Source of the DNA: Candidatus Limnocylindria bacterium
Lineage (GTDB): Bacteria; Desulfobacterota; Binatia; DP-6
NCBI GenBank assembly: GCA_035559675.1
Contig: DATMAZ010000224.1
Location: 670-64,669 of the forward strand
DNA length: 64,000 nt
Direction of reading: 5' to 3'
Shown here: one piece after another, positions 38,193 through 38,935 of the stretch
Layout: each line of letters starts with the position of its first letter
Numbering within the stretch: position 1 is the stretch's first letter
Translations under genes and position numbers: made by a program
The notes under the pieces: generated by a model
What the model was told of the DNA's origin: nothing
What the model saw: the letters and a program-made list of their open reading frames with translations, nothing else
The model's database searches: none

Positions 38193-38441
38193 TCAACCAC
38201 TTAGCGCGACCGCCGCCGCGAGTCGAGGGGTCCGTGTCCGCATCAGCCGGCGGAGGACGTTCAGCAGGGTCTCCGGGGTGATCCCGCGCCAGCCCCACCG
38301 CCCATCGATATCGAGCACGCGGACGCTCCACTTCGGCTTGCGGGTGCGCCACGCCTCGGGATCGACTACGGTGCGCGGCTGACGACCGGAGGGAGCGAGG
38401 CGCGGGTCGAACTTCGGGTGCTTGTTGTTCCGCCGCCCCAC
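38193..38441 (-). CDS. Small hypothetical protein (82 aa) downstream of the Panacea-domain gene; candidate toxin partner
   Basis: GTG start 35 nt after the Panacea gene stop; strong GC3 bias; Arg/Trp-rich. Confidence 0.35.
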   Translation of the reverse strand: MGRRNNKHPKFDPRLAPSGRQPRTVVDPEAWRTRKPKWSVRVLDIDGRWGWRGITPETLLNVLRRLMRTRTPRLAAAVALSG

Positions 38442-38476
38442 CCACCACCGCCCCGCCGGGAAGGAGAGGCTACCTG

Positions 38477-38935
38477 CTACGGGGTCTCGGCAGCGTCAAG
38501 GCCGCCGTAGTACTCGGCCATCGAAGCGTGGCTGATCGTCGCCGAACTGCGTGCGCCCGCGGGCAGCCCGCGCCGCGCCTGGCGCCAGGGAAGCTCGCGG
38601 TGCGTGAGGTCGCTCAGCCACTGCGCGTCGCGCCGGCCGTAGAAGTTGAGCACGCCGTTGACCGTGCCCTGCTCCGACCAGTCGAGCGCATTCGCGTTCC
38701 CCCACGGCCACGCCGTGATGAGAAACTCGCCACGGTGCCGCTCATAGAGGTCCGGGCAGACCGGCCCGTTCGCCCATGCCTCGATCTGCTGCGGGAACAA
38801 CGGCCGGTCGTCCCACACAAGCGACCACGCCTGCGCGTAGTACACGAGCTTCTGGAGCTTCATGGCCGACATCGGCCCCAGCTCCCGAAGGATGTACGCC
38901 GCCACGTCGTGTACGGACACCATCGACCTCTCCAT
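38477..38935 (-). CDS. Panacea/DUF4065 (SocA-like) antitoxin-domain protein
   Basis: AMKLQKLVYYAQAWSLVWDDRPLFPQQIEAWANGPVCPDLY matches the DUF4065/Panacea core. Confidence 0.65.
   Translation of the reverse strand: MERSMVSVHDVAAYILRELGPMSAMKLQKLVYYAQAWSLVWDDRPLFPQQIEAWANGPVCPDLYERHRGEFLITAWPWGNANALDWSEQGTVNGVLNFYGRRDAQWLSDLTHRELPWRQARRGLPAGARSSATISHASMAEYYGGLDAAETP

Follow-up and report, generated by a model that had tools for sequence, protein, structure and literature searches.

A Panacea gene pair beside a tRNA gene

The DNA considered here is a 64-kb window (the whole stretch that was analysed) of contig DATMAZ010000224.1, a metagenome-assembled sequence assigned to Candidatus Limnocylindria bacterium. 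On its minus strand, next to a tRNA-Arg gene, lie panA, encoding a stand-alone Panacea (DUF4065) antitoxin, and directly 3' of this a small open reading frame (ORF) of 82 codons with a GTG start (38193-38441). The original prediction described an antitoxin gene and a neighbouring candidate for a novel toxin, both carried on a tRNA-linked islet. The antitoxin gene, the small ORF with its GC-biased third codon positions and the link to a tRNA are all borne out by the analysis reported below; the novelty and the completeness of the toxin are not. The features of the locus are collected in Table 1.

Table 1 Features of the panA locus and the surrounding islet (positions are those of the window)
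Feature	Position	Strand	Evidence or content
panA, stand-alone Panacea/DUF4065 antitoxin gene, intact	38477-38923	minus	148 aa; Pfam and family alignment
Spacer, panA stop to GTG start of small ORF	38442-38476	minus	35 nt, read from sequence
Probable 5' remnant of T1-type panT, codons 1-66	38244-38441	minus	profile match, tblastn, phmmer
Unrelated 16-codon tail and stop (MRTRTPRLAAAVALSG*), replacing conserved FE.MTW.EIL	38193-38243	minus	alignment A2
tRNA-Arg (anticodon TCG), complete	38107-38181	minus	ARAGORN; Rfam RF00005, 66 bits
Partial tRNA-Arg copy (nucleotides 1-42, one mismatch), far islet border	41271-41312	minus	direct repeat D4, 42 nt, 98% identity
Islet between the two tRNA 5'-half copies, 3.09 kb	38182-41270		panA, panT remnant, four or five small plus-strand genes
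156-aa protein, looks secreted (N-terminal sequence only)	39173-39643	plus	gene call on unitig L001
CxxC-motif protein	39643-40035	plus	gene call on unitig L001
Sbal_3080-family lipoprotein	40032-40451	plus	NCBIfam NF040519, 85 bits
88-aa protein, lipoprotein-like (N-terminal sequence only)	40631-40897	plus	gene call on unitig L001

Judged by its sequence, panA is a real and intact gene for a stand-alone Panacea antitoxin. The product matches Pfam family PF13274 (SocA_Panacea) with an E-value of 1.7e-14 and 55.2 bits, against a cutoff of 25.7, has every one of the 36 columns that are invariant in an alignment of 28 family sequences (A1) and is 100% identical to NCBI entry HWP67467.1, a record from a metagenome-assembled genome. 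Around 8000 homologues were matched, the best 120 of them at 61-71% identity. The maximal ORF spans 38477-38968 on the minus strand. An earlier proposal that the gene ends at 38935 is correct in that an in-frame ATG exists there, but the ATG 12 nt downstream, at 38923, is preceded by a Shine-Dalgarno-like GGAGAGG and yields a protein (MVSVHDVAAYIL...) that aligns with the family from its first residues and fits the family N-terminus, MxSVHDVAAYIL; this was chosen as the start. A consensus scan revealed neither a sigma-70-like promoter nor a terminator relevant to panA and the small ORF.

The small ORF as the probable start of a longer gene

The small ORF has a coding-like composition: GC content at its three codon positions is 0.70, 0.59 and 0.83 (the last of these being GC3) in a window of 71% GC, and this pattern favours the minus-strand frame over an overlapping plus-strand ORF. 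That it contains no known domain, as had been noted previously, holds for Pfam, NCBIfam, PHROG and PADLOC, all of which gave zero matches, and when 5.8 billion proteins were searched by word index with the 82-aa product, the query itself was the sole match. The view of an orphan ORF that follows from the latter search was rejected and the ORF classed as a member of a family, because an exhaustive phmmer search and tblastn against PanA loci brought relatives to light.

To survey such loci, 28 close PanA homologues were aligned, and this alignment served as the basis for retrieving 80 loci, which come from Acidobacteriota, Actinomycetota, Cyanobacteriota, Pseudomonadota, Planctomycetota, Verrucomicrobiota, Gemmatimonadota, Chloroflexota and other phyla. 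ORF calling found a gene of 142-192 aa (median 153 aa) directly 3' of PanA in 66 of the 80. A profile search of the remaining 14 recovered three further full-length partners, one encoded on the opposite strand, two interrupted by a contig end and five that are degraded, leaving three loci with none, so that a homologous partner lies directly 3' of PanA in at least 69 of the 80 loci, across many phyla. The gap between the two genes has a median of 6 nt in the 66 intact loci, compared with 35 nt in the window. Conservation of the pair, which had been proposed as a check, is thus seen in most related loci. Decay of the partner has also occurred independently elsewhere: L009 retains an N-terminal remnant only, the gene is split in L024 and L032, and L052 and L081 are further cases.

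The relatives of the small ORF are all longer than it is. With the 82-aa product as query, tblastn matches the DNA directly 3' of PanA in dozens of loci (E-values down to 3e-8), and whilst the library scans were empty, a profile built from the 66 partners matches residues 4-68 of the ORF with an E-value of 7e-15. The match covers positions 6-68 of the 156 in the profile and no others. Among 1.84 billion representative proteins, phmmer found 12 matches besides the ORF itself, every one of 126-166 aa and every one pairing its own N-terminus with ORF residues 1-71; no short homologue was among them. In an alignment of the partners (A2) the small ORF, whose N-terminus (MGRRNNKHPK) is typical of the family, tracks its relatives through ...LLNVLRRL and then reads MRTRTPRLAAAVALSG and a stop where every relative has FE.MTW.EIL. 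Homology therefore extends to about codon 66 (coordinate 38244), and the 16 codons that follow are unrelated; tblastn alignments with the family stop at 38244 or 38229.

What is missing is the larger and better conserved part. The ORF corresponds to the N-terminal ~44% of a protein of ~150 aa and retains, by comparison with a structural model of the full-length relative P0134 (described below), the basic N-terminal tail, strand beta1 and most of helix alpha1. All 13 nearly invariant family columns (E67, H83, A94, R117, W119, G120, W131, W132, D133, P134, H136, C139 and P140 in P0134 numbering) lie past the break, as do the C-terminal core motifs SLRLSG.ER.WG and WWDPEH.VCP that mark the full-length domain. 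Because the part that carries every nearly invariant residue is absent, toxicity of the 82-aa product is unlikely.

The partner family and the T1 class of PanT proteins

Database members of the partner family are all named 'hypothetical protein' and have no Pfam domain. Of nine full-length partners tested, none matched the RelE, HigB, YoeB or ParE models of Pfam and NCBIfam, although seven gave sub-threshold matches (20-27 bits, cutoff 40) to NCBIfam NF046006, the MAG6450 family, and a sequence profile search of the PDB with the family returned nothing. We modelled P0134, which comes from a Bryobacterales metagenome-assembled genome, with AlphaFold2 from a 40-sequence alignment, obtaining a mean predicted local distance difference test score of 85.7 and a predicted template modelling score of 0.73. 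In the model, some 30 irregular, lower-confidence N-terminal residues precede beta1, alpha1, short helices and a three-stranded antiparallel sheet. The top 26 Foldseek matches of this model are all of RelE/ParE type but are weak (E-values 0.04-1.3), and the family is accordingly best described as one with a predicted, divergent RelE/ParE-like fold.

A link to catalogued systems comes from Salmonella phage Emek. The partner profile matches Emek gp16 with an E-value of 2e-14 over positions 27-144, and P0134, P0150 and P0173 all match phrog_8366, which Emek gp16 matches with an E-value of 9e-66; the 82-aa ORF by itself does not reach this family. In their study of Panacea-containing toxin–antitoxin (TA) systems, Kurata et al. 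(2022; PMC8832971) described 1,268 putative PanAT loci and 88 putative toxin clusters. In the part of their Dataset S1 that was compared, cluster T1 is the largest PanT cluster, with about 217 rows in antitoxin-first order and members in Actinoplanes, Streptomyces, cyanobacteria, Nitrolancea, Spiroplasma and Helicobacter. Two T1 pairs are listed there as tested, from E. coli MOD1-EC5558 (WP_089622957.1/WP_077635758.1) and from phage vB_SemP_Emek (YP_006560565.1/YP_006560566.1), and both T1 proteins are given as predicted 'mRNase' and 'not toxic' in E. coli. Partners of ours that come from RefSeq genomes had no match, by accession or by organism name, in the same part of the dataset, and the connection to T1 is made through Emek. 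Homology to a listed T1 protein nonetheless removes the case for a novel toxin: the small ORF is related to the cognate partner of PanA but is neither new nor complete, and is, as far as sequence can tell, the stump of a T1-class PanT, a class that is known though functionally unproven.

The window shares with the T1 pair of Emek (gp15/gp16) a stand-alone Panacea antitoxin gene in first position, followed after a short gap by a T1-family gene on the same strand. Window PanA is 36% identical to Emek gp15. Of the features by which Kurata et al. (2022) recognise PanAT loci, a Panacea domain above threshold and a partner directly 3' are both present, whereas the partner gene is incomplete, with about 66 of ~150 codons left. 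The bacterial subfamily to which the window belongs also differs from Emek gp16 in its longer basic N-terminal tail and in its WWDPEH.VCP motif; in a profile alignment the WWD positions are W.D in gp16 and the H is replaced by E (VIWLDREFNLY). From the RelE, HigB, YoeB and YafQ mRNA interferases the T1 family is set apart by the lack of a sequence-level match to RelE-family entries in Pfam or the PDB, by an additional basic tail of ~35 residues and by pairing with Panacea instead of an antitoxin of the RelB, HigA or YefM type; the copy in the window lacks the fold itself. SocAB, the type VI TA system of Caulobacter, has in common with the window an antitoxin with a Panacea domain, SocA being the founding Panacea protein, but no SocB-like partner lies beside window PanA, its partner coming from another family, and the NCBIfam SocA equivalog model (NF047745) gives PanA 42 bits against a cutoff of 190. 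SocA is a ClpXP adaptor, whereas stand-alone PanAs bind the toxin directly (Kurata et al. 2022, PMC8832971; Ernits 2023, PMC10440598).

Could the 82-aa product nevertheless be functional by itself? It might be a short toxin of a new kind, or a peptide descended from the T1 N-terminus that binds PanA or acts in regulation. The open frame, plausible GTG start, family-like first residues and high GC3 would all suit such a role. For another stand-alone PanA, contacts with the toxin are predicted at a short helix and at the toxin's unstructured N-terminus (Ernits 2023, PMC10440598), and by analogy the part retained here could bind PanA. We regard this possibility as very unlikely, given that no other relative found by phmmer is shorter than 126 aa, that the conserved residues and most of the fold are missing, that the last 16 codons are unrelated read-through and that even the full-length T1 proteins tested were not toxic in E. 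coli.

That last result raises another possibility, that PanA and T1 proteins form a conserved two-protein module that is not a TA system at all but, for example, a phage-sensing defence pair, of which the window holds a broken copy. The conservation of the two proteins is relevant here. Across the same phyla (loci L002-L081), mean column identity is 67% for PanA (A1) and 36% for the T1 partner (A2). In TA systems the toxin is usually better conserved than the antitoxin, the reverse of what is seen for PanA and T1. The stronger conservation of PanA is consistent with Panacea having an additional conserved interaction or acting as a sensor, and a sensor role has indeed been proposed (Ernits 2023, PMC10440598). 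The occurrence of the PanA-T1 module in phages and prophages, and a weak match between T1 proteins and the C-terminus of NsnC, are likewise compatible with a defence pair. A RelE/ParE-like fold and a tight, antitoxin-first bicistronic layout are, however, what would be expected of a classical type II TA system, and it is common for toxicity not to be seen in a heterologous host; the copy in the window is truncated either way. A module of this non-TA kind is in our view unlikely. A more elaborate proposal is that PanA (60-70% identity over more than ten phyla) and its partner (~36%) make up a sensor-effector system, possibly for phage defence, from which stumps are kept as the tail and first helix engage PanA, or alternatively that the islet is a non-autonomous element with the tRNA-Arg 5' half as attachment site; this we consider quite unlikely.

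The match to NsnC was seen with the T1 domain of both P0134 and Emek gp16 (L082:1883-2368), which resemble the C-terminal ~95 residues of PADLOC NsnC (PDLC03891) with E-values of 5e-5 and 7e-6. The likeness hints that the same domain is used as a module in a phage-defence protein. A PanA homologue with 51% identity in a Mycobacterium abscessus prophage has a partner that lies outside the T1 profile and, by eye, carries a Doc-like HPFHEGNKRTA. This Fic/Doc-like protein was set aside as a relative of the small ORF, there being no T1 profile match, and illustrates the swapping of partners described for Panacea.

The break in panT

If the small ORF is a stump, the remainder of the gene might be sought nearby. 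Neither tblastn with the 66 partners nor a six-frame profile search found a C-terminal part of panT anywhere in the 64-kb window, and a toxin split by integration, with its C-terminal half at the other end of the islet (~41270-40850) or elsewhere, was rejected on these grounds. A frameshift was rejected as the cause in turn: past 38244 the other two frames contain no family motif and one of them stops immediately.

It might also be asked whether the truncation is an artefact of assembly or binning, the real genome having a full-length panT. The source is a metagenome-assembled genome, and the assembly graph is interrupted at a 42-nt repeat adjoining the locus; Logan unitig L001 (3152 bp), an independent assembly identical to window positions 38152-41303, terminates exactly 30 nt into each copy of the tRNA repeat. 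The break at 38244, however, is 62 nt within unique sequence, away from the repeat, and the two assemblies are identical across it, which argues that a join at the repeat is not its cause. The 82-aa product occurs exactly in two records, both on contigs of 2-5 kb, one of which is unitig L001. Together with the absence of a C-terminal part from the window, these observations make an artefact highly improbable.

A 12-mer, ATGCGGACACGG, is found on the minus strand at 38232-38243, exactly where panT homology ends, and again at 41146-41157, with a one-mismatch copy at 41114-41125. These copies were considered as arm-type sites of an integrase and dismissed as not significant on their own: in 9% of shuffles (p ~0.09) the junction zone has a 12-mer in common with the remainder of the islet, and the recurrence may be due to chance.

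A probable decayed PanAT module with an orphan antitoxin

We consider it highly probable that the locus is a decayed PanAT module of type II TA character, composed of an intact orphan PanA and a T1 panT truncated after about codon 66. Its ancestor would have been an operon of two genes, panA followed by a T1-class panT of ~150 aa, the product of which would have joined a basic, disordered N-terminal tail to a RelE/HigB/YoeB-like alpha/beta domain with predicted mRNase activity; the fold and the findings of Kurata et al. (2022) are the reasons for proposing an ancestor of mRNA-interferase type. By extension from stand-alone PanAs studied previously (Kurata et al. 2022; Ernits 2023), PanA would have neutralised this partner by direct binding. 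Everything past codon 66 would then have been lost, most likely when the margin of a small tRNA-linked islet underwent a deletion or illegitimate recombination, leaving a frame that runs through the 16 unrelated codons and stops 11 nt before the tRNA-Arg gene, and the same event may have removed a recombinase from the islet. Lacking the three-stranded sheet and the nearly invariant residues, the stump should be unable to adopt a toxin fold and almost certainly lacks toxicity. The coding-like GC3 suggests that the loss was recent, or else that the stump is still translated.

The orphan PanA could itself be in decay, or it could be kept because it serves in anti-addiction or in immunity when T1 toxins arrive. 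The anti-addiction idea for orphan antitoxins and decayed chromosomal TA loci is reportedly due to Saavedra De Bast et al. in 2008. The present locus resembles such cases in that an intact antitoxin stands beside an inactivated toxin in an acquired islet; by analogy, PanA may afford protection here too.

Several points weigh against this interpretation. The frame is open and its GC3 and N-terminus are those of a family member, so the stump may be expressed, and it may by analogy have a residual role such as PanA binding. With two T1 representatives non-toxic in E. coli, the description of the ancestor as a toxin derives from fold and gene context. Finally, the truncation event cannot be reconstructed, as no empty-site relative was found and L084, the closest relative, differs on both sides of the tRNA.

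The main use of the result is the correction of an annotation trap, in that a short, apparently domain-less ORF beside an antitoxin gene can be the stump of a known partner; it carries little weight for biology at large. For TA specialists, the T1 class can now be modelled as proteins of RelE/HigB-like fold that begin with a basic tail and bear the WWDPEH.VCP motif, a prediction which, together with the unusual conservation of PanA over its partner, could guide work on why the T1 proteins tested so far are non-toxic.

The tRNA-linked islet and its surroundings

The islet proposed originally is recognisable as the 3.09 kb bounded by the tRNA repeat, with the qualification that the repeat is the 5' half of tRNA-Arg and that no integrase accompanies it. 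The near copy (38140-38181, nucleotides 1-42) ends exactly at tRNA position +1; the far copy begins 86 nt after a WS/DGAT-like gene. Integrases that target tRNA genes usually duplicate the 3' part of the tRNA, and no 3'-half repeat is present in the window. No recombinase domain was detected in two ORFs covering three of the plus-strand islet genes, an 88-aa and a 38-aa gene lying outside the scan, and all ORFs of the islet are too short for an integrase. The islet may be a decayed or non-autonomous element. None of its plus-strand proteins (39173-40897) recurs in the 80 PanA loci or in L084.

In relative L086 a complete tRNA-Arg gene directly follows the orthologue of the WS/DGAT-like gene, so the partial copy at 41271-41312 probably marks the native position of the tRNA. 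Up to the WS/DGAT-like gene the window and relative L084 are collinear, with 73% nucleotide identity; past that gene L084 has a different one, of 535 aa, then tRNA-Arg and then unrelated genes. Since L084 carries other genes around tRNA-Arg, this neighbourhood appears from the comparison to be a variable spot. A search of metagenomes for an empty site, with the WS/DGAT-like neighbour as query, found tRNA-Arg downstream in relatives but with differing flanks, and no relative with an empty site.

A tRNA gene lies within 3 kb in 12 of 60 PanA-T1 loci (L039, L040, L058, L062, L072, L073, L076 and others), in several of them 100-800 nt from PanA, which suggests that islands linked to tRNA genes often carry the PanA-T1 module at their margins.

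The region 35200-38100, 3' of the tRNA, has a GC content of 0.59-0.66, compared with 0.71 for the window, and may be a second acquired segment. It includes a gene for an RRM-domain protein (35274-35657) and a 704-aa ORF (35980-38094) for which family searches gave only weak matches well short of the cutoff (ArsO-type flavin monooxygenase, E-value 0.009, near the N-terminus). Relatives L084-L108 gave no homologue of the 704-aa protein, and the genes that follow the tRNA in L084 are likewise absent from the window. Beyond the other end of the islet, at 43512-43992, four to five tandem repeats of 93-99 nt, rich in TCGCA/GCAG, lie inside a long reading frame in a region that is conserved in L084; on the opposite strand they would read as cysteine codons, which suggests a cysteine-rich repeat protein.
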